DNA of 64,000 bases from Myxococcota bacterium (GCA_041288095.1 JBGGMJ010000188.1:1-64000), one strand, 5' to 3'; counted from the first letter of the stretch, positions 8,012 to 50,173 are shown. Numbers and translations: made by a program. Notes: generated from the letters alone by a model not told the origin.

Positions 8012-8038
8012 GTACAAGTTAGAGCACGGTCTCGATAG
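8012..8038 (+). promoter_or_regulatory. Weak copy of the sigma28-like motif
   Basis: GTAC-N15-CTCGATAG, 42 nt upstream of ATG 8081. Confidence 0.35.
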
Positions 8039-8080
8039 GGCATCCTACGCGCCCGGTTCGCACGAAAGGTCGCAATCGCC

Positions 8081-8926
8081 ATGGCCATCAATCGCATCGA
8101 CCAACTCCAGCGCACGACGGCCCTTCCGACCGCTGAAGATTCGCAGGCTGGGCGCTCCGCACGGCTCGAGCTCAACCAGCAGTCGAGCTTCGAGCGCGGC
8201 AGCGACTCCGACTTCGATCCCGCGAACTTCCAGTCGAGCTTCACCGACGACCAGCGTCGCGAAGCGCAGGCGCGCTTCGAGAGCTTGCCAATCGAGGACC
8301 AGGAAGCCGTCGACACCGCGGTCACGAAGGTTTACCTCGGGCTCAGCGGCGTGCGCACCGGTACCACGACCACCGCCGAAGTTGGTGCCTCGCTGGCCGA
8401 AGGCCTCTCGACTTACTCGAACGCGCTCTACGGCGTGCGTGGTTTGCCCGCCGCCAACCGCGTGTCACGCGGAAGCGGTGGCTCGGGCGAAGTCACCGAC
8501 ATCATGGTGCGCGTCATGGGCCGGGTCGAAGACACGGTTGCCCAGTTCGCGATCGACCTCCAGGGCAAGATCAACATGAAGTCCGAGCTGCGCACCCAGC
8601 TCGCCGAAGTTCGCGACATGGTCGCCAACTGGCCCGAGGGCGCGGAGACGCAGACGTTCACCTATACGTCGTACGACGTCGACTCGAGCACCGGTAAGGT
8701 CACCGAGACCGTTCACACCGAAGAGCTGACGAAAGAGCAAGCGATGGCGCTGCAGGAGCGCATGCAGTCGCAGCTCGACACCCTCTCCGACATCACCCAG
8801 ATGCAACAGTTCGAGCTGCAGCAGAAGTATCAGCAGCAGCAGGAAGCCATGCAGACACTGAGCGAAATTCTCCGCTCGATGCATGACACCATGAAGAACA
8901 CCATCGCCAACGTGAAAGCGTCCTAG
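8081..8926 (+). CDS. Hypothetical protein with EspA/SseB/Bsp22-like helical C-terminus
   Basis: No signal peptide, polar leader, coiled coil, and C-terminal [44 protein letters not shown]. The family call is pattern recognition only. Confidence 0.55.
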
Positions 8927-10104
8927 TCCGCGTTCGGCGTCATCACGCACTTCACGCAGCCTTCACGCTTCTCCATGAAGGTGTCGTAGAGGTGCGGCGC
9001 GTCCTCGAGTGAGCCGCGGTGCGTGACGATGAACGACGGATCGATGTCGCCACCGTCGATGCGCGCGAGCAACGGCTCGAGGTAACGGTGGACGTGCGTC
9101 TGACCCGTGCGCAGCGTCAGCCCTTTGTTCATCACCGCGCCGAACGGCATCTTGTCGAGGAAGCCGCCGTAGACGCCCGGGACCGATAGCGTGCCGCCCG
9201 GCCGGCACGCGATCATCGCTTGGCGCAGCGCGTACGGCCGATCCTGCTCGAGCTTCAGCATCTGCTTCACCTTGTCGTAGGCGAACATGAAGCCGGTGCC
9301 GTGCGCCTCGAGCCCGACCGCATCGATGCAGTGGTCGGGTCCGCGGCCGCCCGTGAGTGAGCGCAGCTCGTCGAGCACGTCTACCTCTTCATAGTCGAGC
9401 ACCACGGTAGCGTCGCTCTGACTGCGCGCCATCTCGAGCCGCGCCGGCACACGATCGATGGCGATGACTTGCTCGGCACCCAACATATACGCCGAGCGAA
9501 TCGCGAACTGACCAACAGGCCCACAACCCCACACCGCGACGATGTCTCCCGGCGCGATGCCGCAGTTCTCGGCGGCCATATAACCCGTCGGGAAGATGTC
9601 GGTGAGGAACAGGACCTGCTCGTCGGTGAGCGTGTCGGGCACCTTGAAGCAACCGACGTCGGCATGCGGTACGCGCACGTACTCCGCTTGGCCGCCGGCG
9701 TATCCACCGGTCATGTGCGAGTAGCCGAAGAGCCCCGAGGTCGAGTGGCCGAAGAGCTTCTCGGCCATCCAAGCGTTGGGGTTCGTGTTCTCGCAGAGCG
9801 AGGTGCGGCCGTTGACGCAGTTTTCGCAGTTGCCGCAGGCGATGGTGAACGGCACGACGACACGGTCGCCGACTTTCACGCGTGTCGTCGAGGAGCCAAC
9901 CTCGACGATCTCGCCCATGAACTCATGCCCGAGCACGTCCCCCGACTGCATGCTCGGGATGTAACCGTTCACGAGGTGCAAATCGGAGCCGCAGATCGCG
10001 GTGGCGGTGACACGAACGATGGCGTCGCGTGGATTGACGATACGTGGCTCGGGAATGTCCTCGCAGCGCACGTCCTTGGGACCCATCCAGCAAACGGCTT
10101 TCAT
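8923..10104 (-). CDS. Zinc-dependent alcohol/formaldehyde dehydrogenase (FDH-like MDR)
   Basis: ICGSDLH, GHEFMGE, CxxCxxCx7C, DIFPTGY and GCGPVG motifs. Confidence 0.93.
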
Positions 10105-10640
10105 GGCACGTTCCTCTCCGCCGGCTTCTTCGCCGCGCGCTTCTTCGCGTTGGTCTTCTTGACGTTCTTCACCGCCGCGGCCGCGTCGAGCATGGGCTTC
10201 AAATGACTGCCGGGCTCGGCCTTGGGCTTGTCGCGCGCCGATGGACTCTCGTTGGTGGCGATCTCGCCGGTCTCGGCGAGTTGCTTGAAGCGGCGCAGAT
10301 GCTCCTTGAGCTGGGCACCGGGGTCGAGGCCGGACAAGCCCGAACGCACGGCCGAGAGCCTGCCCATCGGCGCGCTATAGCGGATGAGACCGCGCACCAC
10401 CGTGCCGCGCGTGCCCTCGTCGAAGGCGACCTCCACGTCATCCATCCATACGGGTAGTCGCTCGAAGTCGTTCCACATGGCGCGCAGCTCGTAAGCCGGC
10501 TTGCGGATGGTGACGAAATACTCGGCTTCGATGATCTGATTCGCGCGCCGTGCCACGGCCCTGCGAGCACTATAGGCCGCGATCGCGGACCCCGCCGTTC
10601 CCAGCGCGATACGCCAGGCTACCTTTCTCATCGCTTTCAT
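10101..10640 (-). CDS. SRPBCC/cyclase-like protein, apparently internally shortened
   Basis: [17 protein letters not shown] and [15 protein letters not shown] motifs; Lys/Ala-rich tail. Confidence 0.7.
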
Positions 10641-10661
10641 TTGTTCCCTCGTCAGCGCCGA

Positions 10662-13297: not shown

Positions 13298-13325
13298 GCA
13301 ATGCTAGACCGGTGGGCAGCGATAA
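13298..13325 (+). promoter_or_regulatory. sigma28-like motif (N16 variant)
   Basis: GCAA-N16-AGCGATAA, 31 nt upstream of ATG 13357. Confidence 0.5.
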
Positions 13326-13356: not shown

Positions 13357-13629
13357 ATGTCTCGTCTCGCAGGACTTCCGGATTTCATGATCGGTGACCC
13401 TTATGCCATCGGCTACAACCCGCGGGACCACCGCGAGCGTGTGACCTCCGGTCGGACGACCCTCGAAGTCGGCGGCGTCTACAGCGAGGCCGAACAGAAG
13501 GCCTTCAACCTGCCGCACGGGTATCGCTGGAGCTCGGTGACTCACGGTCTCGACGAGACGGGCAAAGGCGCACGGCGTGCCCTCGAGAAGATCGCAGCGC
13601 ACGGCGGCTCCGGCATTAGCGGTCTGTAA
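13357..13629 (+). CDS. Small hypothetical protein (90 aa) between the duplicated junction copies
   Basis: ATG-start ORF with high-GC3 codons and its own upstream motif, oriented opposite to the flanking operon. Confidence 0.6.
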   Translation: MSRLAGLPDFMIGDPYAIGYNPRDHRERVTSGRTTLEVGGVYSEAEQKAFNLPHGYRWSSVTHGLDETGKGARRALEKIAAHGGSGISGL

Positions 13630-13635
13630 GCACTC

Positions 13636-20386: not shown

Positions 20387-21063
20387 AGATCCTGGTCACC
20401 GGTGGCAGCGGCTTCATCGGCAGAGCGGTGTGCGCTCTAGCGGTCGAGCGCGGTCTCACGGTGACCAGCCTGTCGCGGCACGGACCTTCCCTGCCCACGC
20501 ACACGCCGGTGCTCGCGAAGGTCAGCTGGTTGCGCGGCAGCGTCTTCGACGAGCAAGGCCTCGATGCCGCCCTCCAAGGGGTCGAGGCAGTGGTCCACTG
20601 CGTCGGCATTGGCCGGGAGCGGCCGAGTAAGGACGAGTCGTTCAAGCGGGTGAACGGTGACTCCGCTATCGTGGTCGGCGAGGCCGCCAAGAGAGCCGGA
20701 GTGCGTGCCTTCGTTTTCTTGTCCGCCGGCGAGAAGCCGCCTTGGGCGCATGAGGAGTATCTGAGCTCGAAGCGCCGTGCCGAAGTGGCCATCGCCAAGA
20801 TCTGTGAGCGCTTGGTGGTTCTGCGGCCGGGGCTGGTCTACGGGCCGGAGAAGCGGCTCGCGACCTTCGCCGCTGGTCTCTTGCGCGCCGTCGCGACGGT
20901 GCGGACACCGGGCCCCCGGCTCGAAGCCAACACGCCGGTCTCGGCCGCGACCGTCGCGAGAGCGGTCATGCGCGCGGTGCTCGACCCAAACGCGCGCGGC
21001 GTGGTCGAGCCAGCGCGCATCGCGGGCTTCGCCGAGGTTGCTCTGGCCGTGACGAGCCTTTGA
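20383..21063 (+). CDS. NAD-dependent epimerase / atypical SDR
   Basis: MKILVTGGSGFIG, YLSSKRRAE and LRPGLVYG motifs. Confidence 0.88.
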   Translation: MKILVTGGSGFIGRAVCALAVERGLTVTSLSRHGPSLPTHTPVLAKVSWLRGSVFDEQGLDAALQGVEAVVHCVGIGRERPSKDESFKRVNGDSAIVVGEAAKRAGVRAFVFLSAGEKPPWAHEEYLSSKRRAEVAIAKICERLVVLRPGLVYGPEKRLATFAAGLLRAVATVRTPGPRLEANTPVSAATVARAVMRAVLDPNARGVVEPARIAGFAEVALAVTSL

Positions 21064-21118
21064 GCCGTTTCGGCCGCGCGCTGTGCCTGGCTGTCACCGA
21101 CGCTCCGCCCTGCTTCGC

Positions 21119-21145
21119 GCATCCGGGGCTCACGGTGGTCGATAA
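21119..21145 (+). promoter_or_regulatory. sigma28-like motif
   Basis: GCAT-N15-GTCGATAA, followed by an AAGGAG RBS and ATG 21174. Confidence 0.6.
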
Positions 21146-21173
21146 CCGACTGCACGAACAAGGAGACTTTGGG

Positions 21174-21707
21174 ATGCGTGTTGTAGAAATCAAAGGCGGT
21201 ACCGACCTCAACGCCCTCAAGTGGGCGCTCGCGAATCAGCGCCCCGACCTCGGGTTCAAGCGGAACGAGTTCGCCATCGTGCAGAACTCAAAGGTCTACT
21301 TGGTTCGCGGCGAGGGAGCATCGAAGCTCGAGTCCGGAACCGTGCTCAAGAGCAATGAGCGAACGCTGGACTGCTACGTGAACGAACGCGGCCGCGGTGG
21401 CAGCCTCCTGGGCCAGATGTCACTGTACCTGGGCGGGCTTTTCGGCGGCATGGCGGGCATCGCGTATCCCGCCAAACTGTTGCTTACGGGCGCCGTGGCG
21501 AACGGGGACCTCTTTATCGCCGGCCTCGCGTTGATTGGCGGCGCCGTCGCGGCTTTCCATGCCATTCGATCCATCGTGCCAAACCAGCCGGACGTGAGCG
21601 GAAGCATCATCGCGAACGCCATCGCCCCCAGCGACCTCGTCTATGAGGACTTCAAGGTCGTTCCCCGCGGCGAGAAGCAGCCAGCGCAGGTTGCCACCGC
21701 GGCCTAG
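21174..21707 (+). CDS. Hypothetical protein with a Gly-rich hydrophobic hairpin
   Basis: Good RBS, no signal peptide, two adjacent hydrophobic segments in the C-terminal half. Confidence 0.7.
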   Translation: MRVVEIKGGTDLNALKWALANQRPDLGFKRNEFAIVQNSKVYLVRGEGASKLESGTVLKSNERTLDCYVNERGRGGSLLGQMSLYLGGLFGGMAGIAYPAKLLLTGAVANGDLFIAGLALIGGAVAAFHAIRSIVPNQPDVSGSIIANAIAPSDLVYEDFKVVPRGEKQPAQVATAA

Positions 21708-21737: not shown

Positions 21738-21764
21738 GCAACCGCTGCCACGTCGCCGCGATAC
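21738..21764 (+). promoter_or_regulatory. sigma28-like motif
   Basis: GCAA-N15-CGCGATAC upstream of the M1 peptidase. Confidence 0.65.
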
Positions 21765-23860: not shown

Positions 23861-23887
23861 GCAACGCTCGGACCTAGCCTCCGATAA
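23861..23887 (+). promoter_or_regulatory. sigma28-like motif
   Basis: GCAA-N15-TCCGATAA, ending 9 nt before ATG 23897. Confidence 0.7.
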
Positions 23888-23896: not shown

Positions 23897-25960
23897 ATGA
23901 CCATTCTTGCCGCCACCGAGATCTCTGGGCCCCGATCCGTTCTACCAGTCCCTCCGGGCGAGGCTCTGCCCGCGCGGACCGCCGTGGATGCGGCTAGCGA
24001 CCGCGACAGCCGCGTCAGGGCCATCGACCCCAAGATCCTTGGTGCGACTCCGGGCTCGGGTACGCATCCGCGGCTCGGGCTGGCCCCGGCCTCGCGCATC
24101 TCGGCACCTACGACTGCGATCGATGAGCAACGTGATTTTGCCGCTCAATCGCGCATGGTCTACATGCGCGAGCAGGGCGGTCAGAAGCACATCTTCTTGA
24201 CCCGCGGCGACGGCACCGAGCCTGTTCAGCTTACCCAAGGCAACGCCTGGCACTTGTACCCGGACATCAGCCCGGACGGGCGCTGGGTAACCTACGCTCA
24301 GGGCAGTGGCCAGAACGACTTGTCGATCGTCCTGCGCGATCTCGAGACCGGCGCGACCCGCACGCTGAGCACGACGGCCGGCATGAACCTGCACCCTCGG
24401 TTCGCCAAAGACGGCAGGTCACTCGCCTATAGCGGACCGCTGGGTCCGGACGGCCGGCACCAGATCGGCATCGTGCGGCTCGATGCGCTGCGCGATGGTC
24501 AGGCGCCGGAGACGCGCGTCATCGCGAGCGACAAGCCGTGTTACTTCCCGTCCTTGAGCTCGGACGGCAGCACCGTGGTGTTCCAGCGCGACGTTTCGCC
24601 CACGCAGCGGGAGCTCGTCATGCGAGATCTCGCATCCGGCGAAGAGCGCGTCATCCAGACGCCGGGACCCATCAGCATGGCTCCAACATGGTCGGCCGAT
24701 GGCGGCTGGGTCGCATACACCTGCAAGGTCGACGGCGACTGGGAGATCTACGTCACCGACGTTCGCACCAACGAAACGGCGCGCATCACCCGCCAAGCCG
24801 CCGCGGACTTCGCTCCGCACTTCCGTGCCGACAACACTCTGTTGTTCGCCTCGAACCTCGGGGGCAACTTCCGCATCTACCAGACACACGTGGGCTCGCT
24901 CGGTCAGGGACAGTTTCCCATTCGCCCGCTGGTCGTGGGTGAGGGCGATGACTACGCGCCGCGCACGTCGGGGCTCGTGAACATCGAGCAGAGACAACTC
25001 GCGGGGATCTCCGAGCCAGCGCGCTCGTCATTCGGTGCCGCGCGCGTCGGCGATCGCGTCTACATCGCGGGTGGCCACCAGGGGCACGAGCATACGTATC
25101 CGCCCGAGTCCTTCATGGCTCGCCTGGAGTATTACGATCTCGCAACGCAGAGCTGGGGCCGGGCCACACCTCGCCCGGTGGCGGCGCACGGGTACGGACT
25201 GGCCGCCAACGATCGCTATCTCTACGCCTTCGGCGGCTTCACGTACTCGCCCGACCACAACCCCAGGTGGAAGTCGCTCGACGGCATCGACCGCTACGAC
25301 ACGGTTACCGGCCAGTGGGAGACCGTCGCCAGACTGTCGACGCCGCGCTCCTCGAACGCCGTGGTGCGGGTAGGAAACAAGGTCTATCTGCTGGGCGGTT
25401 GGGACAGCACGCCGCGGAGAAATGGCGATTTCGAGGGGCGCTTTCACGAAGACATCGAGGTCTTCGACCTCGAGACGCAGACCGTCTCCAAGGCGCCTTT
25501 TTCGCTGCCCCGTCCGTTACGACGCGCTTTCACGGCCTTCGAGAAGGACGGCAAGATCATCATGGTGGGCGGCCTCGGTGTCGGCTCCACCCACTTCGAG
25601 CTCCTCGACAACGTCACCGAGCTCGACCCGACGACGGGCACGTCACGCGAGCTACCGCGACTGCCGTTTGCGACCTTCGCTCCGGCAGCCGGCATGATCG
25701 GCGACACCGCCTATGTCTTTGGCGGCATGTTCAAGACCGGGACCCAGAGCTACGAGTACGTCAATCACGTCTTCCAGCACCGCCTGGGCACCTCGAGGTG
25801 GTCGCACACCGGCCGCTACCTGAGCGAGTCCAAAGGCTTCGCCCAGGTCGTGCCGCTCGACAACCGGACGATCGGCATCCTCGGCGGTCACACCTACCGC
25901 GGAAACACTGATACGCCGGTGCCGACGTTCGAGACGTTTGGGGCTTCGTCCGCACGATAA
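23897..25960 (+). CDS. PD40/TolB-like beta-propeller plus Kelch-repeat protein with a disordered leader
   Basis: P.xSPDG-type repeats followed by Kelch repeats (VYIAGG, LYAFGG, VYLLGG, MVGG, YVFGG, ILGG; YD...W). Confidence 0.85.
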   Translation: MTILAATEISGPRSVLPVPPGEALPARTAVDAASDRDSRVRAIDPKILGATPGSGTHPRLGLAPASRISAPTTAIDEQRDFAAQSRMVYMREQGGQKHIFLTRGDGTEPVQLTQGNAWHLYPDISPDGRWVTYAQGSGQNDLSIVLRDLETGATRTLSTTAGMNLHPRFAKDGRSLAYSGPLGPDGRHQIGIVRLDALRDGQAPETRVIASDKPCYFPSLSSDGSTVVFQRDVSPTQRELVMRDLASGEERVIQTPGPISMAPTWSADGGWVAYTCKVDGDWEIYVTDVRTNETARITRQAAADFAPHFRADNTLLFASNLGGNFRIYQTHVGSLGQGQFPIRPLVVGEGDDYAPRTSGLVNIEQRQLAGISEPARSSFGAARVGDRVYIAGGHQGHEHTYPPESFMARLEYYDLATQSWGRATPRPVAAHGYGLAANDRYLYAFGGFTYSPDHNPRWKSLDGIDRYDTVTGQWETVARLSTPRSSNAVVRVGNKVYLLGGWDSTPRRNGDFEGRFHEDIEVFDLETQTVSKAPFSLPRPLRRAFTAFEKDGKIIMVGGLGVGSTHFELLDNVTELDPTTGTSRELPRLPFATFAPAAGMIGDTAYVFGGMFKTGTQSYEYVNHVFQHRLGTSRWSHTGRYLSESKGFAQVVPLDNRTIGILGGHTYRGNTDTPVPTFETFGASSAR

Positions 25961-27625: not shown

Positions 27626-27652
27626 TTATCGCGCATGTGCTCGCGCGGTTGC
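27626..27652 (-). promoter_or_regulatory. sigma28-like motif
   Basis: Minus-strand GCAA-N15-CGCGATAA, 23 nt upstream of the start at 27602. Confidence 0.65.
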
Positions 27653-33046: not shown

Positions 33047-34291
33047 ATGACGGCATGGGGCCATGTTGCCGCGGTGACGGCGCCGCTGTTGTTGGTCGCG
33101 GCGACGGCGAGCGCCTTCTCGGTGTCGCGCACTGACTCGAATCACATCATCAAGTGGTACGATCGTGATTTGATCATCAACCTCCAGGTCGATGCTGACG
33201 GCCCGACACGCCTGGCACCGGGCTACACCTACGCCGATGTTTCGGCGGCGATGCAGAGCGCCGTGCGCTCGTGGAACAACATCAACTGCAGCGCTATCGA
33301 GCTGCGCATCACCAGCACGACGACGTCGACCACCAATGCAGCGTCCGACGGAGTCAGCGGCATCGACGGTATCAGCCGGGCGGTGTGGATCGAGCAGGCT
33401 GCGAGGTACCCCTACAGCGCGGAAGTCCTCGCTGTGACCGCGCCGGTATTTTTCCAGGACGGCACCATCGTCGAGGCAGACGTCATCTTCAATGGCGTGG
33501 ACGATGACTGGGCTGTCTACGCGAACCTTGCCGCCGTGCCTGGCGGTTCGACCGACGGCCAGGCGGTCGACATCGAGAGCGTCGCGGCGCACGAGCTCGG
33601 GCACCTCATCGGCCTGGGCCACGTCTTGGATGGCGCCGCCTTGCCCGAGCCACCGACCATGACCCCGACGATCGATCCGCAACTGCGGACGCGGACGCTC
33701 GATCAGGACGACCAAAACGGCGCATGTTTCTTCTATCCCGCGGGCGGCGGCACGACCAACCCATGTAGCAGCGATGCCCAGTGTCCCGAGCTCATTGCGA
33801 GCCTTGGCGACTCCGAGCAGATCGTCGACCGATCGAGTTGCAGCGACGGCGCTTGCACGAAGATCGAGGATGTACCGTGTGGCGCCGGCAACCCAGGGGA
33901 GCGTTGCTGCAGCGACAACTGCAACAGCGGGCTCAAATGCCAATCCGTCGGCGGTGAAAATAGCTATTGCGCCGCGAGCTGCAACACGACGTTCCCGCTC
34001 CAGTGCCCGGCCGGGTTCACCTGTCTGGCGTTCACGCCCGGCACGCAGGGTATGTGCATCTCGCAAGTGTTGCTTGGCTGCGCCTGCGACACGAACGACG
34101 ACTGCACGCCCCCATGCGCCTGTGACAGTGACTGCGGTAGCCCCGTGACCACCGGCGGCGCGCGAATCAGCGATGTTGGCTGCGGCGCCGGCGGCAACGT
34201 TGCACTCTGGAGCCTGCTGCTTCCGGCCCTGCTCTCGAAGCGCGCGCGCCGGCGGCCCGTGTCACAGGCGCGCGGCGCAACGCCGTCGTGA
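33047..34291 (+). CDS. Matrixin (M10) family metalloprotease with Cys-rich region and MYXO-CTERM-like tail
   Basis: Signal peptide; HELGHLIGLGH; Met-turn TMTP; GC...hydrophobic...KRARRR C-terminus. Confidence 0.85.
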   Translation: MTAWGHVAAVTAPLLLVAATASAFSVSRTDSNHIIKWYDRDLIINLQVDADGPTRLAPGYTYADVSAAMQSAVRSWNNINCSAIELRITSTTTSTTNAASDGVSGIDGISRAVWIEQAARYPYSAEVLAVTAPVFFQDGTIVEADVIFNGVDDDWAVYANLAAVPGGSTDGQAVDIESVAAHELGHLIGLGHVLDGAALPEPPTMTPTIDPQLRTRTLDQDDQNGACFFYPAGGGTTNPCSSDAQCPELIASLGDSEQIVDRSSCSDGACTKIEDVPCGAGNPGERCCSDNCNSGLKCQSVGGENSYCAASCNTTFPLQCPAGFTCLAFTPGTQGMCISQVLLGCACDTNDDCTPPCACDSDCGSPVTTGGARISDVGCGAGGNVALWSLLLPALLSKRARRRPVSQARGATPS

Positions 34292-34303
34292 GCCCCTCGA
34301 TAC
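34277..34303 (+). promoter_or_regulatory. sigma28-like motif
   Basis: GCAA-N15-CTCGATAC, ending 8 nt before ATG 34312. Confidence 0.65.
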
Positions 34304-40149: not shown

Positions 40150-41474
40150 ATGCGCGTTACGGTCATCGGCACGGGGTACGTTGGGCTGGTCACGGGGACG
40201 TGCCTTGCCGACATGGGCAACGATGTCGCCTGTCAGGACATCGACGCCGCCAAAATCGAGAAGCTCGAGCGCGGCGAGATCCCCATCTACGAGCCGGGCC
40301 TCGCGGAGCTCGTGACGCAGAACCTACGCGGTAAGCGCCTCGCCTTCACGACCGATCTGGCCACGGCCCTTGCGGGCGCCGAGATCGTCTTCATCGCCGT
40401 CGGCACACCGCCCGCCGAGGACGGCAGCGCCGATCTCAAGCACGTGCTCGGCTGCGCTCGTGATGTCGCGCGCGTGCTGCGGGGCGCCGCTGTCGTGGTG
40501 GTGAAGAGCACGGTCCCGATCGGTACCTGCGATCTCGTGCGCGACGCCATGAACGAGATCCTGCGCGAACGTAACGCCGGCTTCACCTGCGAGGTCGTGT
40601 CGAACCCCGAGTTCCTCAAGGAGGGGTCCGCGATCGAGGACTTCATGCGCCCGGACCGCATCGTCGTCGGCGTCGCCGGGGAAGAGGGCGCCGCCGTGAT
40701 GCGCAAGCTCTACGCTCCCTTCGTGCGCAACAAGCATCCGCTCATCGTCATGGATGTCCGTTCCAGCGAAATGACCAAATACGCCTCGAACGTCATGCTG
40801 GCTGCACGCATCTCGATGATGAACGAGCTCGCGGCCATCTGCGAGCGGCTCGGCGCCGACATCATGAGCGTCCGCGACGGCGTCGGCAGCGACCAGCGTC
40901 TAGGCATGGCTTTCCTCTATGCCGGTGTCGGTTATGGCGGATCATGTTTCCCCAAGGACGTGCAGGCATTGGCGCGCATCGCCCGCGGGGTCGGAGTAAC
41001 GCCGGACGTTCTCGACGCGGTCGAGCGCGTCAACGCCCGGCAGAAGCTCCTGGTCGCCGAGCGCGTCATGGCCCATTTCGGGGGCCAGCTGAAGGACAAG
41101 CGCATTGCCTTGTGGGGCCTCGCCTTCAAGCCCAAGACCGACGACATGCGCGAGGCGCCGTCGCTCGTGATCATCGACGCGCTGACGCGGGCGGGCGCGA
41201 CCATTCACGCATACGACCCGGAAGCGATGCCCAACGCACGCAAGCTCCTCGGCGGGAACCCGCGGGTGACCTTCGCGTCCGACGCCTACGGCGCCGCCGA
41301 AGGCGCGGATGCCTTGTGCCTGGTCACCGAGTGGGGTGCTTTCCGCGCCCCCGACTTCGAGCGCATCCGCGCGTCGATGCGGCAGCCGTTCATCGTCGAC
41401 GGGCGCAATCAATACGAGCCGCAGGAGATGCAGCGCCTCGGTTTCACCTACGTCGGAGTGGGGAGGGCGGTGCA

Positions 41475-41478
<4 letters not shown>
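40150..41478 (+). CDS. ugd: UDP-glucose 6-dehydrogenase
   Basis: [29 protein letters not shown] and [10 protein letters not shown] motifs. Confidence 0.95.
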
Positions 41479-42400
<922 letters not shown>

Positions 42401-42404
<4 letters not shown>

Positions 42405-43435
42405 GCGTGGTGAAGAAGCGGGCGCTCATCACCGGCATCACCGGCCAAGACGGCAGCTACTTGGCGGAGCTGCTGCTCTCGAAGGGCTACGACGTCTACG
42501 GCCTCATTCGCCGGGCATCGACGTTCAATACGTCGCGTATCGATCACATCTACGCCGACCCGCACGAGAAGCCGCCGCTTCGCCTCATCTACGGTGACCT
42601 GAGCGACGCCTCGAGCTTGAATCAGGCGCTGCGCGAGGCGCAACCCGACGAGATCTACAACCTTGGCGCCCAGTCGCACGTGCGTGTCTCGTTCGACATC
42701 CCCGAGTACACGGGTGACGTCACCGGCCTCGGCACCCTGCGCATGCTCGAGGCGATCCGCGAGACCGGCATCAAGGCGCGTTTCTATCAGGCCTCGTCGA
42801 GTGAGCTCTACGGCGCGGTCCGCGAGGTGCCGCAGCGCGAAGCCACGCCGTTCAATCCGCGTAGCCCGTACGCAGCCGCCAAAGCGTACGCGTTTTACGT
42901 GGTCGCAAACTACCGCGATGCCTACGGCATGCACGCTTCGAACGGCATCTTGTTCAACCACGAGAGCGAGCGCCGCGGCGAAACCTTCGTGTCGCGCAAG
43001 ATCACGCGCGCCGTCGCGCACATCAAGTATGGCCTCCAGGACAAACTCTACCTGGGGAACCTCGATGCGCAGCGCGACTGGGGCTACGCGCCGGACTACG
43101 TGCAGGCCATGTGGCTCATGCTGCAGGCCGAGTCGCCCGACGACTACGTGATCGCCACCGGCGAGATGCACACCGTGCGCGAGATGGTCGAGGCCGCGTT
43201 TGGTCTGGCGCAGCTCGATTGGCAGAAGCACGTCGCTATCGATCCCAAATACTTCCGCCCAACGGAGGTCGAGCAGCTCCTCGGCGATTCCACCAAGGCC
43301 CGGACCAAGCTCGGGTGGAAGCCCCAGGTCGGTTTCCAGGAGCTCGTGTCGCGGATGGTGAAGCACGACTTGGAGCTCGTGCGACGCAAGGTCGAAGGCC
43401 ACCGCGAGCGCGCCAACGAGACGCGGAGCGACTAG
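42401..43435 (+). CDS. gmd: GDP-mannose 4,6-dehydratase
   Basis: [37 protein letters not shown] and RDWG motifs. Confidence 0.96.
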
Positions 43436-43470
43436 AGCTCCGCATGACACGCGGTCGCTCCCTCTAAGGC

Positions 43471-43497
43471 GCACCACCACGGTCGCCGGACCGATAT
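43471..43497 (+). promoter_or_regulatory. sigma28-like motif
   Basis: GCAC-N15-ACCGATAT upstream of a GGAG RBS and GTG 43530. Confidence 0.55.
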
Positions 43498-43529
43498 ACC
43501 GAGGACACAAGGGAACTTCGGAGCCACTG

Positions 43530-43799
43530 GTGAGCCTCACGCCGATTGCAAAGACGCCTCTCGCAGCTACTGCTAACCCGCGCTGCGATTGCGCCACCGA
43601 CGCTCAGCCCACGGTAAAGGCCGAGGCCCCCACGGTCGCCCCTTCCGCACCGACTCCGCCTCTTCACAAGCTCGCCATGAACGCCACCTCCGGGGCCCTC
43701 ATCACATTCGGCAGCATCGTCCTGCTCGGAACCCCCGAGATCACCGGCATCGTCGGCGGTCTCATCACGTTCGCGGCGCTTCAGGCGTTCACCAAATAG
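43530..43799 (+). CDS. Small protein with P/T/A-rich leader and C-terminal hydrophobic hairpin
   Basis: RBS; disordered first half; two short hydrophobic helices; stop overlaps the MFS start. Confidence 0.6.
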   Translation: MSLTPIAKTPLAATANPRCDCATDAQPTVKAEAPTVAPSAPTPPLHKLAMNATSGALITFGSIVLLGTPEITGIVGGLITFAALQAFTK

Positions 43800-45103
43800 T
43801 GCTCGAGCCACCGAAGATCCGACAAGTCATCTTGGCGTCGTCGGTCGGCACGCTCTTCGAGTGGTACGACTTCTATCTCTACGGCTCGCTCGCGGCTTTC
43901 TTCGGCGGCCTGTTCTTCCCCAAAGGTCACGACACCGCGGCGTTTCTCGCGAGTCTTGCGACCTTCGGTGCGGGCTTTGCGGTGCGCCCGTTCGGCGCGC
44001 TCGTCTTCGGACGTCTCGGTGACCTCGTCGGTCGCAAGCACACGTTCCTCGTCACCATCGTGATCATGGGTGTGTCGACGGCGGCGATCGGCTTGCTGCC
44101 GACATACGAGAGTGTTGGTTTGCTCGCGCCGATTCTGCTCGTGACCCTGCGACTCGCACAGGGGCTCGCGCTCGGCGGTGAATACGGGGGGGCCGCGACC
44201 TACGTTGCCGAGCACTCGCCGGATGATCGACGCGGCTACTACACGAGCTTCATCCAGACGACGGCGACGCTCGGGTTCTTCGTGTCACTCGCGGTCATTC
44301 TCACGGTGCGGCTCGCTTGCGGTGACGAAGCTTTCACGAGCTGGGGCTGGCGCGTCCCGTTCCTGTTGTCGTTCGTGTTGCTGGGCGTCTCCGTCTACAT
44401 CCGGCTCAAGCTGCGTGAGTCGCCGGCCTTCTTGAAGCTCAAGGCCGACAACAAGCTCTCGAAGAATCCGCTCAAGGAGAGCTTCACCAATCCGGTGAAC
44501 CTCAAATACGTCTTGCTCGCGCTCTTCGGCGCCACTGCCGGCCAAGGCGTCGTCTGGTACACGAGCCAGTTCTATGCGTTGTTCTTCTTGCAGAGCACGC
44601 TCAAGGTCGATTTCGTCACGTCGTACGTGCTCATCGGCATTGCTCTCGCGATCGGGACACCGTTCTTCGTGGTGTTCGGCCACCTCTCGGATCGCATCGG
44701 ACGCAAACCGATCATCTTGGTAGGGTGCGCTTTAGCGGCCGTGCTTTACTACCCGCTGTTTCGCGCATTGGCGGTAGTCGCGGCTCCGCCCGATATCAAC
44801 ATCTTCGCGACGCTCGCCATCCTCGTCGTCTTCGTGCTGCTCGTGACCATGGTTTACGGGCCCATCGCGGCGTTTCTCGTCGAGCTGTTCCCGACGCGCA
44901 TTCGCTACACATCGATGTCGCTGCCCTATCACATCGGCAACGGCGTCTTCGGTGGCTTCATGCCGCTGATTGCGGCGAGCATGACCGCCGCCACCGGCAA
45001 CATCTACGCGGGTCTCGCTTATCCCTGCTTCATCGCGCTCACCACGGTGATTGTTGGTGCCATTGGAATTCGGGAATCCAAGGAGCACCGACTCATTTCG
45101 TGA
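43799..45103 (+). CDS. MFS transporter, metabolite:H+ symporter (MHS) family
   Basis: ASSVGTLFEWYDFYLY, GDLVGRK, QGLALGGEYGG, SDRIGRK and ELFPTRIRYT motifs. Confidence 0.93.
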   Translation: MLEPPKIRQVILASSVGTLFEWYDFYLYGSLAAFFGGLFFPKGHDTAAFLASLATFGAGFAVRPFGALVFGRLGDLVGRKHTFLVTIVIMGVSTAAIGLLPTYESVGLLAPILLVTLRLAQGLALGGEYGGAATYVAEHSPDDRRGYYTSFIQTTATLGFFVSLAVILTVRLACGDEAFTSWGWRVPFLLSFVLLGVSVYIRLKLRESPAFLKLKADNKLSKNPLKESFTNPVNLKYVLLALFGATAGQGVVWYTSQFYALFFLQSTLKVDFVTSYVLIGIALAIGTPFFVVFGHLSDRIGRKPIILVGCALAAVLYYPLFRALAVVAAPPDINIFATLAILVVFVLLVTMVYGPIAAFLVELFPTRIRYTSMSLPYHIGNGVFGGFMPLIAASMTAATGNIYAGLAYPCFIALTTVIVGAIGIRESKEHRLIS

Positions 45104-48100
45104 GCCAAGGCGTAAGCTCGAGGATAGCTCCCGAGCTTGCAAACCCGGCGTCACCGAGCTCGCCGCCGGTGTCGTCGCCCCAGCACTTCAAGACTCCCTG
45201 AGTCGTCAGGCCGCAGGCCGAGCGCTTGCCGCGGGCGATGGCGCTGTAGGTCGTTCCTGAATCGACGGCTTGCGGTGCCTGTGCCGACGCGAAGCCGCCG
45301 TTGCCGATCTGGCCTTGGCCTCCGCCTCCCCAGCAGCGCACCAAGCCCGACGTCGTGAGGCCGCAGCTACCGATGCTCGCTATGCCGCCGTTGTTGAAAC
45401 GCGTCAGCGCCACCGCGGCGTACTGGGCGGCGCTGTCGATGGGAGTCGGTTGCGGGCGCGGCGTCGTGGTTCCGTCGCCGAGCTGGCCAACGCCGTTGCT
45501 CCCCCAGCACTTGAGCTGACCACCGACGACCACCGCGCATGTATGGGCGCTCCAGGCATCGCACCCGACTCCCACGTGCGAGTACGCCACACCGCTATCG
45601 ACGACAGTCGGCGTGGTCGTCGGCGTCACAGAGGTCGTGCCGTTGCCCAACTGACCGTAGTCGTTCGCGCCCCAGCACTTGAGCACGCCGTTGGTAGTGA
45701 CGGCGCAGGTGTGCGTGCACGCGGCGCTCACTTGAGCGTAGGTTGTGCCGACGTCGATGGCGAGGGGCGCTGACACCGTCGCGGTTCCGCCGCTGCCAAC
45801 CTGGCCCGACGCGTTCGTGCCCATGCACTCGAGCCCTGCGAGGTCGGTAATGGCGCACGCGTGCCCGTTGCCCACGGCCACTGCGACGTACCGTGACGCG
45901 GACGAGATGACGTGCGGCTCGAGCGGCGCGAACGGGCCAGAGCCGGCGCAGGTGAGCTGACCCGCGGCGACGCCACAGGTCACCTGCTCGCCGAGCGCGA
46001 AGGCGGTGTAGCCGCTTCCCCAAGATGCCGCGAGCGCCGGCCAGCCACCCCAACAATAGGGTTGTCCGCTCGAGAGGACACATCCATGTCTCGTGTGTGG
46101 GCCGAGGGACAGCTGGTCGTAAACGCGCGCGTCGTCGATCACCGCCGGCGCGCGCCGATAGGTGAGCACACCATCACCGAGCGACGCCGGCCCGTAGCCG
46201 GCGAGGAAACAACCGACGGCTCCAGCAGCGTCGCTGCCGCACAAGGCACGCTCGCTGCCCGAGAGCGTCGTCCAGGTGCGGCCGCCCTGTTGTGGAATGG
46301 GCTGACTGGCAAAACATCGCAGCTCCGCGCCCGTGGTCACTCCACAGGTCGAAAACAGAAGGCCGGCGTGAATGTCGGCATAGCTCGTCCCGGTGTCGGC
46401 GGTGACGGGGGTCAGTTTCTGAGTCGTCGACCCGTCTCCGAGCTGGCCGGATGAGTTGTAGCCCCAGCACCGCGCCACGCCGGTGCTGGTGACGCCGCAG
46501 GTGCGCATCGTCCCCGGCGACACCATCTGGTACGTCGTGCCGCTGTCGATGGTGACCGGCGTTTGCTGGTCGGTGGTGGAGTTGTTGCCGACCTGACCGT
46601 TCGAGTTCCAACCCCAGCAGCGGAGTGCGTTCGCGGTGGTGATGCCGCACGTCGTGTGCATGAACGTCCGCAGGTCGCGGTAGCTGACGCCGCTATCGAT
46701 GGTGAGGGGCAGCGGAGCCGAGGCGCTCGCCGCGTTTCCTAGTTGCGCGAACGAGTCGCCGCCCCAACATTTCACCGTGCCGCCTGTCGTCAGCGCGCAG
46801 CTGTGATAGCGGCCGACGGCGGCACGCTGATAGCTCGTGCCCAGGTCGATGGGCACCGGGCTCGCGCGCTGCTGGCCACTGCCGTCGCCGAGCTGTCCGC
46901 CCGCGTTACTGCCCCAGCACTTGAGCACGCTACCTTGCGTGACACCGCAGGCGTGACCTTCGCCGACGCTGACATCCGAGTAGGGCACTCCGCCATCGAT
47001 GACGACGGGTTGCGGGCGATCGATGGTCGTCCCGTCTCCCACTTGGCCGACGTCGTTGATGCCCCAACACACCAGTGTCCCGTCGCTCAAGACGGCGCAG
47101 CCATTGGTTGCCTCGAAGTTCATGGCATGGCGACTCACGGTGAGGGGCGCACCGCTCGAGCGGATGCCCAGACGTGTCGTCGCCGTGTCGTCAATCCTGA
47201 CGCGAGGTGAGTCGACCGCGATTGCGCGCACCTCCATGCGAGCCCACCACGTCGTTCCGGGACGTGCATCGAAGACGTCGAACGTGACCGGCGCGGTGAC
47301 CTGGCCGGCGGGAATGGTGATCTCTCGTCCGTTTTCGAGATCGTGGTCGAGCCCGTACACAGCGTCTCCGAGCACCTCCAGCGTGACGTGCACGTCTTGC
47401 AGCCGCGTCGCGGCTAGGCGCAGCGTGAGCGTTTGCGCGCCGCTCGTCGACGCCACGATGCCGTCACGCTCGACGAAGCCGATAGTCGTCCACGCTTCGC
47501 TCACGGCGAGAGTGATCGCCCGCGCGGTCATGGGCGTCACGTGACCGACAGCATCGCGAATCCAGAGGTAGACGGCTTTGGGTCCGTTCGCGCCCGGGAG
47601 TTGCGTCGATGTCAGCGAGGTCAACGGAAGCCAACCGGCGTCGGTGAAGACCGGGCTCGCGGAGAGACGTGCCTCCATGGGACTCGCGTCGCTCGCGTTG
47701 ATCGCCACGGTGACTTCCGCGGACGCCGTGCTCGCCGCGCCTCCCGCCAGCAAGAAGTCTTCGAGCACGGGAGGCTGGCCATCGATGCCGAAGGGCGTCG
47801 ACACCACGGGCGCTGCCGTGTTGCCCACGGCGTCGGAGAGGCTCACTCGCACGAGTGCTTGGCTCGCATCGGTCGCCGGCACCTGCCAGTCAGTGCCGCT
47901 AACGTGGTCGTTCATCGCGGTCGCACTGGCCTGCACCGGGGTGAGAAGACTCCAGCTCGCCCCGCCATCGACGGAGACCTCGACGGCAAAGCTCGCGAGC
48001 GGCGCGACGTGCGGTTCTGTCGTCGACCATGTCAGTGAAAAAGGAGCGGCCCCGGCAACGAACGCCGGCGGCGCCCGCACCCAACGCAAGTTGGGAGGAG

Positions 48101-48476
48101 TTGTATCGAGGGTGACCTGGGTGGTGCCCGGCGCATCGGAGATCGCGCCACCGGCGTCACGGCCCCACACCGCTATCGTGTACAGGCCGTCAGCGCCGCT
48201 GAGCGTGTGCCCCGCCGTGCCCGCGCACGCGACCCAGCGCGGGTCGTTCGCTGCCGGCCGCGCCGTGCTCTGTGTCACCAGCATGCTGCCGTCAGGGGAG
48301 CGGCAAACGATGCTCAACTCGACCTCCCGTGACGCCGTCAGTCCGGGGGTGCTCAGGGTCACCGCGGGTGCCGAGCCACCAGCTTGCAGGCCATCGTCGA
48401 GAAAGCCGCTGCGCGAACAAGCGACGGAGGGCGCCAGCACGCAGATCAGGGCACCCGCCACCAGCCGACGCGCCAT
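45093..48476 (-). CDS. RCC1/BLIP-II repeat lipoprotein with Ig-like and Calx-beta-like domains
   Basis: SVA-C lipobox; DTTPP Ig-like modules; more than ten HxC...G.L.CWG.N..GQLG.G repeats. Confidence 0.88.
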   Translation of the reverse strand: MARRLVAGALICVLAPSVACSRSGFLDDGLQAGGSAPAVTLSTPGLTASREVELSIVCRSPDGSMLVTQSTARPAANDPRWVACAGTAGHTLSGADGLYTIAVWGRDAGGAISDAPGTTQVTLDTTPPNLRWVRAPPAFVAGAAPFSLTWSTTEPHVAPLASFAVEVSVDGGASWSLLTPVQASATAMNDHVSGTDWQVPATDASQALVRVSLSDAVGNTAAPVVSTPFGIDGQPPVLEDFLLAGGAASTASAEVTVAINASDASPMEARLSASPVFTDAGWLPLTSLTSTQLPGANGPKAVYLWIRDAVGHVTPMTARAITLAVSEAWTTIGFVERDGIVASTSGAQTLTLRLAATRLQDVHVTLEVLGDAVYGLDHDLENGREITIPAGQVTAPVTFDVFDARPGTTWWARMEVRAIAVDSPRVRIDDTATTRLGIRSSGAPLTVSRHAMNFEATNGCAVLSDGTLVCWGINDVGQVGDGTTIDRPQPVVIDGGVPYSDVSVGEGHACGVTQGSVLKCWGSNAGGQLGDGSGQQRASPVPIDLGTSYQRAAVGRYHSCALTTGGTVKCWGGDSFAQLGNAASASAPLPLTIDSGVSYRDLRTFMHTTCGITTANALRCWGWNSNGQVGNNSTTDQQTPVTIDSGTTYQMVSPGTMRTCGVTSTGVARCWGYNSSGQLGDGSTTQKLTPVTADTGTSYADIHAGLLFSTCGVTTGAELRCFASQPIPQQGGRTWTTLSGSERALCGSDAAGAVGCFLAGYGPASLGDGVLTYRRAPAVIDDARVYDQLSLGPHTRHGCVLSSGQPYCWGGWPALAASWGSGYTAFALGEQVTCGVAAGQLTCAGSGPFAPLEPHVISSASRYVAVAVGNGHACAITDLAGLECMGTNASGQVGSGGTATVSAPLAIDVGTTYAQVSAACTHTCAVTTNGVLKCWGANDYGQLGNGTTSVTPTTTPTVVDSGVAYSHVGVGCDAWSAHTCAVVVGGQLKCWGSNGVGQLGDGTTTPRPQPTPIDSAAQYAAVALTRFNNGGIASIGSCGLTTSGLVRCWGGGGQGQIGNGGFASAQAPQAVDSGTTYSAIARGKRSACGLTTQGVLKCWGDDTGGELGDAGFASSGAILELTPWLTK

Positions 48477-48514
48477 GTCATGAGTGTAGCTTGGCGACCC
48501 TGACGGGGCGACAG

Positions 48515-48541
48515 ACAACGCGCCCCACGGCTCGCCGATGA
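48515..48541 (+). promoter_or_regulatory. sigma28-like motif
   Basis: ACAA-N15-GCCGATGA upstream of ATG 48580. Confidence 0.5.
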
Positions 48542-48579
48542 TGCCTCCGCGCTTTCGCGCGTTTTCTTGGGGTCGCGAC

Positions 48580-49182
48580 ATGAACATCGGCGGAATTGGA
48601 CAGGTTGGACACGTCAACGAGGCGGCCCGGGCCGAAGTGGCGACCGCAAGTGCGCGGGCACAACCGGTCGTCATCGGTTTTGGTCCGATGACCGAAGCCG
48701 CGCGCGACAATGGCTTGGCGATGCCGCGCGCTGGTGTGAGCGCTGCCCGTCCGCCGATGATGCGAGTCGCGGGCGGGGAGGGACACCTTCTCGCCGAAGC
48801 GCGTGCGCATTTCGTGCGCGAACGTCCCGAGGTGGTGAGCGCGCTGCGGCGCGCCTATGCGGACATCACTCAGCCCGTGGTCGACGAGATCGCCGACGAG
48901 TGGGTTGCGCGCTCGCTGCGCCGCTATAGCGCACTACTCGACGGGCGCAACGACGGGCTTCAGTACCTGACGCCCTCGGGGTTGCTTCTCACCATCGCTT
49001 TCGAGGGTCAGCGGCCAGAGGGCGACCCGGTGCGCGTGCTCGCCGAGGGGCACCAAGCGAGGTTCATCGAATCGCTTGCGCGCAACGGCGAGTCCACCGA
49101 GGAGGCCACCTTCCAGGCGCGGACGATTGGAGCCCGCCTCGCGCGCAGCACGGCGGGATGGGAAGCGGAGCTAGGTCGCTAG
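48580..49182 (+). CDS. Hypothetical protein with low-complexity leader
   Basis: MNIGGIGQVG... Ala-rich leader followed by a helical domain; no signal peptide. Confidence 0.65.
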   Translation: MNIGGIGQVGHVNEAARAEVATASARAQPVVIGFGPMTEAARDNGLAMPRAGVSAARPPMMRVAGGEGHLLAEARAHFVRERPEVVSALRRAYADITQPVVDEIADEWVARSLRRYSALLDGRNDGLQYLTPSGLLLTIAFEGQRPEGDPVRVLAEGHQARFIESLARNGESTEEATFQARTIGARLARSTAGWEAELGR

Positions 49183-50094
49183 TCAGCTGCGCGACCCTTG
49201 TTTGTTGAAGAGATCGGCGATGACCAGAAAGCGGCGCAACGCGTAGAGCGAGCGATGCCACATCGTCACGAGGAACTCGGAGGGCACGGCCACGGTGTTG
49301 CAGACCAGGGCAACGCGGGGGAGTAGGCCCGAGGTATCCGGAGCCAATGAGAGCATGATGGTGAACGCGTCTTCGGCTTTCTGATCGATGAAATAGCGGT
49401 CGCCGGCGTCGTTCAGCTTGCGGCCTTCTAGATCGTAGAGGCTCGCGAGGGCTGCATTGAGCGGCGCGGGGTCGGCGAGGTCTCCGAACGCGACACGCAC
49501 GCTGTCCATGATGAAGCAGGCGTGGGACACGAGGGCCGGATCCCGCGCGGTCGTTTGCAAGATGAACTTGCGAACGTTCTCGATGAGCTCCTCGCGCGAG
49601 CGAAAACCGGGCATCAAGGTGTTGAAAAAGCGATAGAGGGCGAGCGACGTACTGGCCCAGTCGTAGCTACGCAAAGCCGAGTAGACCGTCGTGTAGAGGC
49701 TGTTGCTGTCGGCTTCGGCCTTGGAGATGTATCCGTTGATCTCGTAGCCCTCGAGGATCTGCCGCTGCGGAGCCTTGCCGGGCTGACCGGTGCGGATGAT
49801 GATCTGCGTCACGTCGTTCTTGAGGGCGCTGCGGATGTACGAGCAGAGCTCGAGCCCAGCGGTGTCGGTCTCCATGATGACATCGACGATAGCCAGAGCG
49901 ATGATGGTCGAATCCGCGAGGCCCTGCAGGTACTCGAGCGCGGCGCCTTTGTTCGCAAAGGTGGTGATCTGGAGACGCGCGCCGGCGTAATTCAGACGCT
50001 TGAGCACGAGGTCGCTCACCGCGAGAACGCTCGGATCGTCGTCGACGATCATGACATTGAAGTATTCGCGCCTGAACATGCGAGCCTCGGCCAT
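49183..50094 (-). CDS. Response regulator receiver protein without a recognisable output domain
   Basis: VMIVDDD, IVDVIMETDTAGL, IIIRTGQPG.AP and Y.INGYISK motifs. Confidence 0.85.
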   Translation of the reverse strand: MAEARMFRREYFNVMIVDDDPSVLAVSDLVLKRLNYAGARLQITTFANKGAALEYLQGLADSTIIALAIVDVIMETDTAGLELCSYIRSALKNDVTQIIIRTGQPGKAPQRQILEGYEINGYISKAEADSNSLYTTVYSALRSYDWASTSLALYRFFNTLMPGFRSREELIENVRKFILQTTARDPALVSHACFIMDSVRVAFGDLADPAPLNAALASLYDLEGRKLNDAGDRYFIDQKAEDAFTIMLSLAPDTSGLLPRVALVCNTVAVPSEFLVTMWHRSLYALRRFLVIADLFNKQGSRS

Positions 50095-50145
50095 AGCTTC
50101 GGGTGGGGACAGCCGTCATGTCAAACCCGAGGGGCCGCACTAGCC

Positions 50146-50173
50146 ACACCAGGGGGCCGGGCCGCGCCGATAC
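50146..50173 (+). promoter_or_regulatory. sigma28-like motif (N16 variant)
   Basis: ACAC-N16-GCCGATAC, ending 7 nt before ATG 50181. Confidence 0.5.

Follow-up and report, generated by a model that had tools for sequence, protein, structure and literature searches.

Promoter sites in the window and across the genome

This work concerns a bipartite element, GCAAC-N16/17-CGATAM, which recurs ahead of genes in a 64,000-nucleotide stretch of DNA from a Myxococcota bacterium (hereafter the window), and the sigma factor that very probably reads it. The window makes up the opening 64 kb of contig C188 in the genome G000, whose assembly (5.85 Mb, 66% G+C, 212 contigs, 90% complete) gave a set of 5,060 genes with a purpose-built gene caller. 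A first-pass annotation had described ten sites between positions 8,012 and 50,173 as sigma28-like promoters of a dispersed regulon, each upstream of a co-oriented orphan or accessory gene. All ten quoted strings are present at their positions, and nine of the ten sites stand when scored with an iterated weight matrix, (RC)GCAAC-N14/15-(GC)CGATAM, with values of 14-21. The remaining one, at 8012..8038 (+), has a -10 box only, since its -35 box scores -14.6, and it is not counted as a regulon member; two further matches to the pattern, at 17396 (-) and 60640 (-), either are weak or fall inside coding DNA. The proposed spacing of 15 nt holds in that annotation's own way of counting, but a second spacer, one base longer, accounts for a third of the sites, and the -35 box is really GCAAC.

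Most of the genes that follow these nine sites encode proteins with no Pfam family. A long-spacer site, GCAAT...CGATAA at 13298..13325 (+, score 14.0), precedes a gene for such a protein of 90 aa (13357-13629), and GCATC...CGATAA at 21119..21145 (+, 18.3) precedes one for 177 aa (21174-21707). The next site, GCAAC...CGATAC at 21738..21764 (+, 18.5), stands before the gene of a 671-aa M1-family peptidase (PF01433; 21816..23831, +), which has a low-complexity N-terminus and no hydrophobic leader; its nearest non-regulon paralogue bears a lipoprotein-type leader. At 23861..23887 (+, GCAAC...CGATAA, 20.4) an ATG follows 10 nt downstream, and the probably leaderless transcript would encode a 687-aa PD40/Kelch beta-propeller protein with a P/A/S/T-rich N-terminus (23897..25960, +). 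On the other strand, GCAAC...CGATAA at 27626..27652 (-, 20.8) faces a gene for a 279-aa protein (27602-26763), and GCAAC...CGATAC at 34277..34303 (+, 19.2) precedes a gene, probably also transcribed without a leader, for a 178-aa protein (34312-34848), both again without Pfam family. Further on, GCACC...CGATAT at 43471..43497 (+, 16.9) precedes an open reading frame (ORF) of 89 aa with no Pfam family (43530-43799), which is followed by an MFS transporter gene; ACAAC...CGATGA at 48515..48541 (+, 16.7) precedes a gene for a 200-aa protein, likewise without Pfam family, that starts MNIGG (48580-49182); and the long-spacer site ACACC...CGATAC at 50146..50173 (+, 16.7) precedes a probably leaderless ORF of 103 aa (50181-50492).

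Two blocks, at 21041-34895 and at 43435-50511, contain eight of the nine sites. At the syntenic positions of congeners (the genus comprises four genomes, G000 included) both blocks are lacking or replaced, and we regard them as insertion hotspots for accessory genes. Three window genes have homologues elsewhere in the relatives G002 and G003, where both boxes are kept whereas the spacer and the low-complexity N-terminus differ: the 23861 promoter has a changed spacer in G003, and in G002 the 27626..27652 promoter reads GCAAC...CGAGAA and the 34277 promoter GAAAC...CGATAA. From this comparison, the sites appear to be retained as promoters while the genes move. The window also holds a three-gene DUF1501-type cassette (27697-30922, -), with a close paralogous copy on contig C103 (82% DNA identity), and nucleotide-sugar and surface polysaccharide genes at 40150-43435 and 51560-64000, the latter stretch with weak coding scores in the purpose-built gene model, which suggests a foreign origin.

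Genome-wide, distances of 5 to 30 nt from GCAAC were counted for the 6,980 CGATA of G000. A spacing of 16 nt occurred 133 times and one of 17 nt 60 times, against 1-15 times for each of the 24 other spacings; TAAA before CGATA and the variant CGATAG gave no spacing peak in the genome, and TAAA/TAAG showed no excess. Among matches to GCAA-N17/18-CGATAH, 178 of 214 (83%) are intergenic, intergenic DNA being 7.4% of G000 by the purpose-built gene calls. With the matrix at a score of at least 12, the two true spacers gave 333 + 174 = 507 intergenic sites, compared with 31-62 (mean 42) at each of 14 control spacers, an intergenic excess of about 420 sites, whereas coding DNA showed no excess over the control spacers. 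These sites, 26-27 nt long, have C at the fifth position of the -35 box in 97% of cases, and neither spacer nor flanks are conserved in sequence. At scores of at least 14, 400 of 428 intergenic sites aim at the start of a co-oriented gene, and the offset of the ATG after CGATA peaks at 8-10 nt (15, 23 and 27 cases, against 2-13 at every other offset between 1 and 29), a pattern that leaderless transcription of part of the genes would produce. Altogether, 477 genes were assigned to sites, and among operon-leading genes the share is 390 of 2,522 (about 15%).

Chance, codon bias or a dispersed repeat might be thought to produce such a pattern, and in relatives of lower GC content raw counts are indeed raised by codon phase: several genomes appear enriched against a reversed pattern and not against a spacing control. 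For this reason the reversed-pattern control was dropped: G016, G022, G048, G054 and G090 lose their signal when N19/20 spacing is the control. In G000 this explanation is already refuted and its probability is negligible, given the spacing counts (133 and 60 against 1-15), the 83% of sites that are intergenic, their orientation to gene starts, the unconserved spacers and flanks, and the three homologous promoters with boxes kept and spacers altered. The motif, which the first-pass annotation had asked to be set against background, hence exceeds it clearly, and we conclude that, as far as sequence can tell, G000 carries a bipartite, strand-specific, fixed-spacing intergenic promoter element at about 420 places.

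A divergent sigma28-like factor and the reading of the element

The genus holds three sigma28-like types: sigma-A, the flagellar FliA, encoded after flhA-flhF-flhG; sigma-B, a divergent factor encoded on contig C92 among genes of a non-flagellar type III secretion system (T3SS), which we denote T3SS*; and sigma-C, an orphan sigma28 followed by a true FlgM gene. The G000 assembly has two sigma28-like genes; sigma-A was found in the three congeners, and neither sigma-A nor flagellin was found in this 90% complete assembly. All three congeners possess flagellin and a flagellar export cluster (e.g. G001:C2:514000-533000), of which none was seen in G000, through loss or an assembly gap. The sigma-C gene (G000:C127:21759-22853, +), with its FlgM gene (PF04316), lies away from flagellar genes and is conserved in the genus; no excess of canonical sigma28 promoters was seen in G000, which leaves the targets of sigma-C unexplained.

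Sigma-B scores 163.7 bits against TIGR02479 (FliA/WhiG), which is still its best-scoring family, the cut-off being 189.6 and the score of a congener's flagellar FliA 215.2. It has region 2 (PF04542), with the RIRGA..D.LR motif, and region 4 (PF04545), whereas region 3 (PF04539), present in flagellar FliA, has no match at E<=0.01 in the sigma-B of G000 or of G111, a complete Myxococcus-like genome of 9.0 Mb with an intact T3SS* cluster. Its region 4.2 helix reads SKSWTSRLH, as opposed to the T[ED]SR[VIA]CQ-like helices of the A and C types (e.g. TESR[VA]CQ), and S269, K270, S271, W272, R275 and H277 are invariant across 74 sigma-B sequences. In a tree, a branch (91/84, not starred) separates the 15 sigma-B rows from types A and C. 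Sigma-B appears to behave as a sigma28 derivative, but should not be filed as FliA, given its score under the FliA/WhiG cut-off and the lack of a Pfam match to region 3. The names attached to homologues of sigma-B also place G000 in Myxococcota, while the window's UDP-glucose dehydrogenase, compared with named genomes, had only remote matches of mixed origin that gave no taxonomic placement.

The -10 box of the motif, (G)(C)CGATAM, fits the sigma28 box GCCGATAA, and the spacer of 15 or 16 nt, in the count of the first-pass annotation, fits the 15-16 nt of that class. The -35 box GCAAC differs from the canonical TAAA(G), as the SKSWTSRLH helix does from the canonical region 4.2 helix; the flagellin promoters of the three congeners, read by eye, have TCAAG or TAAAG-N16-CGATGA, that is, a TMAAG -35 box. 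The earlier proposal of a sigma28-like factor acting on a large, genome-wide and non-flagellar gene set is in keeping with the roughly 420 sites, the 390 of 2,522 operon-leading genes, the two sigma28-like genes and the lack of any flagellin found. Its expectation of a FliA/WhiG-family sigma with a FlgM-like gene holds in part: a FlgM-like gene exists, but as the partner of sigma-C, which fits the motif poorly, and sigma-B stands outside bona fide FliA/WhiG.

In relatives, the cluster of sigma-B runs in the order small gene, needle-like gene, TPR protein, partner, sigma-B, sctI-like, J, FliG-like, L, N, O, P-like, Q, FliO-like, R, S and T. Of 15 sigma-B loci in relatives, 9 carry a co-oriented motif site ahead of the needle-like gene, the partner gene or the sctI-like gene, as do the loci of G000 and G111. 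In G128 and G152 a strict site lies some 1.6 kb upstream of the sigma-B gene; no site was found at the sigma-C/flgM genes of G000. In some distant families (G033, G037, G030, G039, G028) the needle-like gene, sigma-B and the sctI-like gene form a small module away from sctJ-U; in G033 sigma-B was matched in two pieces, and within its genus only G059, whose copy is intact, shows a motif excess.

In a survey of 161 Myxococcota genomes, with N19/20 spacing as the phase-matched control, enrichment of the motif reached p<0.01 in 59 of the 95 that have sigma-B and in 3 of the 66 that lack it. Pooled counts at true and control spacings are 3,768 vs 1,360 with sigma-B and 994 vs 878 without; in family f17 they are 762 vs 220 (40 genomes) and 34 vs 31 (8 genomes), respectively. 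The strongest exception, G005, has a sigma-B truncated by a contig end, and in the motif-enriched genomes G004, G010 (100% complete), G013 and G015 sigma-B is the sole sigma28-like gene. Taken together, the phylum profile, the enriched genomes without another sigma28, the recurrent sites at its operon, and a region 2.4 that is FliA-like as the -10 box is, combined with a region 4.2 helix that is changed as the -35 box is, make it very probable that sigma-B reads the motif. Several observations weigh against this assignment: 36 of the 95 sigma-B genomes miss p<0.01; family f16 has sigma-B and no enrichment (173 vs 159, 11 genomes); G031 (14 vs 2) and G062 (66 vs 40) are enriched though no sigma-B was found in them; 6 of 15 loci of relatives have no site scoring at least 14 at the conserved positions; and the surveyed genomes are related by descent, so that profile counts overstate significance.

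A sigma factor of the extracytoplasmic function (ECF) type could instead read the motif, its distribution merely running parallel to that of T3SS*. AAC in the -35 box and CG opening the -10 box are ECF-like traits, GCAAC resembles -35 boxes of ECF factors, and G000 has 36 sigma-70 region 2 matches, most of ECF size. ECF genes are usually autoregulated, and only 1 of 35 inspected sigma genes has an upstream match, a weak one, to the simple pattern that was used; a conserved site stands at the operon of sigma-B, the motif disappears together with sigma-B within f17 and f12, and the full -10 box, (GC)CGATAM, is that of sigma28. We therefore consider an ECF reader improbable. The main text of an ECF classification preprint contains neither GCAAC nor CGAT, its promoter motifs being placed in the supplements. 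Reading by sigma-C or by flagellar FliA is more improbable still. It would suit the finding that each of the four genomes of this genus, in which the regulon reaches its greatest size, has sigma-C with FlgM (PF04316), and that the congeners have FliA, but both factors retain the canonical helix, flagellin promoters use TMAAG, motif-enriched genomes exist with neither sigma, and G000 shows no site at sigma-C/flgM and no flagellar FliA in its assembly.

The type III apparatus, the putative partner of sigma-B and the target genes

Export apparatus, ATPase, inner ring and rod components (SctRSTUV, N, L, O, Q, J, I) were all matched in G000, where the T3SS* cluster is split over four contigs. SctV lies above the hrcV cut-off, SctN reaches 601.1 against a cut-off of 604.75, and the SctI-like protein matches only at E 0.008. 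Secretin matches occur on contigs C29, C40 and C197, and none was found on C92, C41 or C31 of this 90% complete assembly. The SctV match and the secretin-less loci correspond to the Myxo system of Abby and Rocha, as described in the accessible part of their study (PMC3459982). Motif sites precede the needle-like gene, the sctI-J operon, sctV (upstream of it) and a SycD-like chaperone cassette, in addition to about 400 dispersed sites, so that apparatus genes and dispersed genes share one box, as in a type III effector regulon. The chaperone cassette (G000:C10:79858-83576) consists of three genes with strong sites, for a SycD/LcrH-like chaperone and two uncharacterised proteins, in a translocon-like arrangement. 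At a Tad/Kil-like cluster (G000:C27:39401-47602; CpaB, TadB/C-like, FHA-like) no intergenic site is clear, and a strong one precedes a solitary Flp pilin gene (G000:C23:7871-8122). A joint Kil-T3SS* programme is unsupported, since the Tad/Kil-like cluster lacks a clear site and its CpaB was not found in the three congeners with the one query used.

The needle-like gene (G000:C92:37386-37943, -) is conserved, occupies the sctF position, is followed by the TPR protein gene, and encodes a needle/HrpA-like C-terminal helix. Its profile has 7 matches in G000, three of them with promoter sites. One match is the window gene at 8081..8926 (+; E 2.9e-8), a paralogue that shares the C-terminal helix and whose language-model neighbours include EspA or LcrV on 12% of members; it is probably related to T3SS* although its promoter site, at 8012, fails. 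Of 16 members, 3 match T3SS_needle_F at the C-terminus (best E 0.003), 1 matches HrpA_pilin and 6 match an unrelated helical family; a PDB sequence search with the profile found nothing. Structural models were of low quality both for the needle-like protein (predicted local distance difference test, pLDDT, 53) and for the partner (mean pLDDT 58), and no usable match came from fold searches (best Z 6.4, root-mean-square deviation 5.0, 101 aligned). The needle-like gene may possibly encode an overlooked filament subunit.

The partner, encoded directly upstream of sigma-B, has 159 aa, with a conserved helical domain behind a variable N-terminus (MTKIGDGR...) that is disordered and poorly conserved. 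A complex prediction of partner residues 38-159 with sigma-B residues 66-294 scored 0.77, against 0.00 for the best of three controls; the mark applied to such predictions is reached by 116 of 157 solved complexes and by 2 of 215 mismatched pairs. Between runs, no fewer than 44% of contacts coincide and the partner's pLDDT is 66 or higher; the predicted interface involves mainly sigma-B residues 154-202, the stretch that replaces region 3. This model supports binding of the partner to sigma-B. An exported anti-sigma factor, in the manner of FlgM or Bordetella BtrA, would be the simplest reading, and we give about even chances to a partner that binds and inhibits sigma-B and is itself exported by T3SS*. 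It speaks against such a role that the partner matches neither FlgM (PF04316) nor any Pfam family at E<=0.01, and that it sits where YscH/YopR is encoded in Ysc clusters, a weak lead (score 0.77) that makes a YopR-like role a weak alternative.

Target genes were sampled in 40 regions picked for site density (142 regulon genes, and 80 of 246 available neighbouring controls). A Pfam family is present in 35 of 142 regulon proteins and in 52 of 80 controls; with three quarters of regulon genes outside Pfam, one motif gives a shared context to about 300 orphan genes. Peptidases make up 11 of the 35 Pfam-bearing regulon proteins (M4, S8, S9 twice, C26, S41, M14, M20, M28, trypsin and Lon) compared with 2 of the 52 controls, and a lipase, a nuclease, esterases and two serpins also occur. 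The serpin-domain proteins are encoded at G000:C79:9168-11339 and C134:41728-43230, one of them fused to DUF6929, and a 4,157-aa protein with AAA domains lies behind a strong site at G000:C190:4574-17047 (-). A hydrophobic N-terminus is found in 32 of 313 regulon proteins against 636 of 2,094 others. Among 62 pairs of regulon and non-regulon paralogues, the leader is missing only in the regulon copy in 11 and only in the other copy in 1; about 8 of those 11 leaders are credible signal peptides, the pair of the window's 21816 M1 peptidase included. Enzyme families that are normally secreted occur leaderless in the regulon, and in many regulon proteins the domain follows a stretch of 40-160 residues in which P, A, S, T and Q abound. 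In G111, 9 of the 15 strict sites precede proteins, mostly without Pfam family, that start MSRID, MSNRIG, MSPPKI, MNPIG, MSRID, MAKID, MTTKVG, MPSRIN and MTRIN; the other six stand before a short gene of no assigned class, before genes for two ordinary enzymes, or before nothing that is clearly a gene. Two further sites found with the matrix are located where the T3SS* cluster of G111 ends.

That the regulon is largely T3SS* cargo is, on these sequence features, a proposition we hold to be evenly balanced, and part of the regulon is plainly not cargo, as it includes Lon, ClpX-like ATPases, an aminotransferase, the Flp pilin and some Sec or lipoprotein precursors. Further points tell against a cargo role. 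A D-x-F(E) motif noticed by eye in G111 proteins shows no enrichment in the regulon of G000 (18/380 vs 119/2,044); an N-terminal [polar]-I-[polar] pattern covers only 37 of 380 regulon proteins against 71 of 2,044; N-terminal composition separates the sets modestly (area under the curve 0.74 for residues 2-25 and 0.62 for residues 74-97); S/T/P/Q content resembles that of Pfam-less controls (0.29 vs 0.26, p 0.26, 20 controls); the peptidase share of all tested genes is not significant (11/142 vs 2/80, p 0.14); and gene starts were taken from the purpose-built gene caller.

Some of these same features would suit a general life-stage switch (attack, dispersal or resting), in which sigma-B reads the motif as the FliA of Bdellovibrio does its own, the cargo core is small and most orphans are cytoplasmic. 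Lon, ClpX-like ATPases, the aminotransferase, a DEAD helicase, oxidoreductases, the Flp pilin and Sec-type proteins would belong there, the N-terminal signal is weak against orphan controls, and some relatives keep the sigma-B module without adjacent sctJ-U; a precedent exists in the 92 of 140 attack-phase promoters of Bdellovibrio, according to the accessible text (PMC3627812). Against it, the regulon is depleted of Sec leaders, paralogue pairs differ in their leaders at a ratio of 11:1, enzymes of normally secreted families occur leaderless, and the N-termini in G111 are uniformly type III-like; we consider a life-stage switch rather unlikely.

Proposed control scheme and comparison with known systems

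Altogether, we favour, with some reserve, the reading that the motif is the promoter of sigma-B, a sigma28-derived factor of the myxococcotal non-flagellar T3SS* with a regulon of late-gene cargo. Early T3SS* genes would build the export apparatus, and the partner would hold sigma-B until the apparatus is able to export the partner. Free sigma-B would then transcribe its own operon, the filament and rod subunits, the chaperone cassettes and the dispersed cargo genes, so that a working apparatus would switch on late genes, like FliA-FlgM. In this genus the cargo may amount to several hundred fast-turnover proteins (orphans, peptidases, lipases and nucleases), each carrying a disordered N-terminal export signal instead of a Sec leader, which would lyse or digest a target cell. 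A gap in this scheme is that T3SS* loci without secretin leave the route across the outer membrane unexplained.

In flagella, FliA-FlgM couples a type III export machine to a sigma factor, and late genes include the filament subunit. Our system resembles it in the -10 box, the spacing, the region 2.4 motif and a sigma tied to a type III export machine, and differs in being non-flagellar, in the GCAAC -35 box, in a sigma below TIGR02479 with no region 3 and a changed helix, in a predicted partner without FlgM match, and in hundreds of dispersed targets. HrpL of Pseudomonas syringae is a dedicated sigma whose hrp box marks dispersed type III effector genes, with tens of targets; it is alike in that its box can locate such genes, but it is of ECF type and belongs to a plant pathogen.

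In the attack phase of Bdellovibrio bacteriovorus, FliA is described in the accessible text as acting at 92 of 140 promoters with TTAAG-N16-CCGATA (PMC3627812). There too, a sigma28-type factor of a predator controls, through an equal promoter layout, a large and mostly non-flagellar regulon with proteases and uncharacterised genes. However, that FliA also drives flagellar genes and uses a canonical -35 box, its promoters are 92 mapped ones against some 420 predicted here, and no link to a non-flagellar T3SS is described in that text (PMC3627812). Bordetella BtrS, as summarised in the part available, is a sigma for T3SS genes and a distant effector gene, with BtrA as an adjacent-encoded anti-sigma exported by the T3SS (PMC7498569); unlike sigma-B, it is an ECF factor not derived from sigma28, and serves a complete injectisome directed against animal cells with few effectors. 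Large non-flagellar sigma28 regulons (Bdellovibrio) and a sigma/exported anti-sigma pair for a T3SS (Bordetella) are thus known already. Our literature search, in which subscription journals were thinly covered, found no description of sigma-B or its promoter.

The myxococcal T3SS* lineage branches first among non-flagellar systems, according to the accessible part of the phylogenetic study (PMC3459982), which bears on the origin of injectisomes from flagella, as this first-branching lineage appears to retain sigma28-type control. It is tempting to speculate, at a little less than even confidence, that the earliest-branching non-flagellar T3SS kept the flagellar late-gene checkpoint with a sigma28 derivative of new -35 specificity, a non-FlgM exported anti-sigma and an overlooked filament, that one genus built several hundred rapidly exchanged substrates upon it, and that the same box lists the T3SS* substrates of Myxococcus. 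Among known systems there is also the T3SS* of M. xanthus, a secretin-less apparatus of the same kind (PMC3459982, PMC12075869, PMC10849154, PMC12428579), which is required for prey lysis and whose effectors are only hypothesised in the available portions of these papers (PMC12075869, PMC10849154, PMC12428579). It is described there without needle, and these portions name no sigma, promoter, anti-sigma or substrate, whereas the G000 cluster has a needle/filament-like gene; to judge from the gene order of G111, the M. xanthus cluster, mxan_2434-2464, probably holds the same sigma, presumably as MXAN_2437. Where papers of 2024-2025, in the text available, call T3SS* substrates hypothetical, the promoter gives a short candidate list (15 strict sites in G111), and a candidate anti-sigma and a candidate filament subunit can each be tested by standard Myxococcus genetics, which makes the question of T3SS* substrates and control directly testable.

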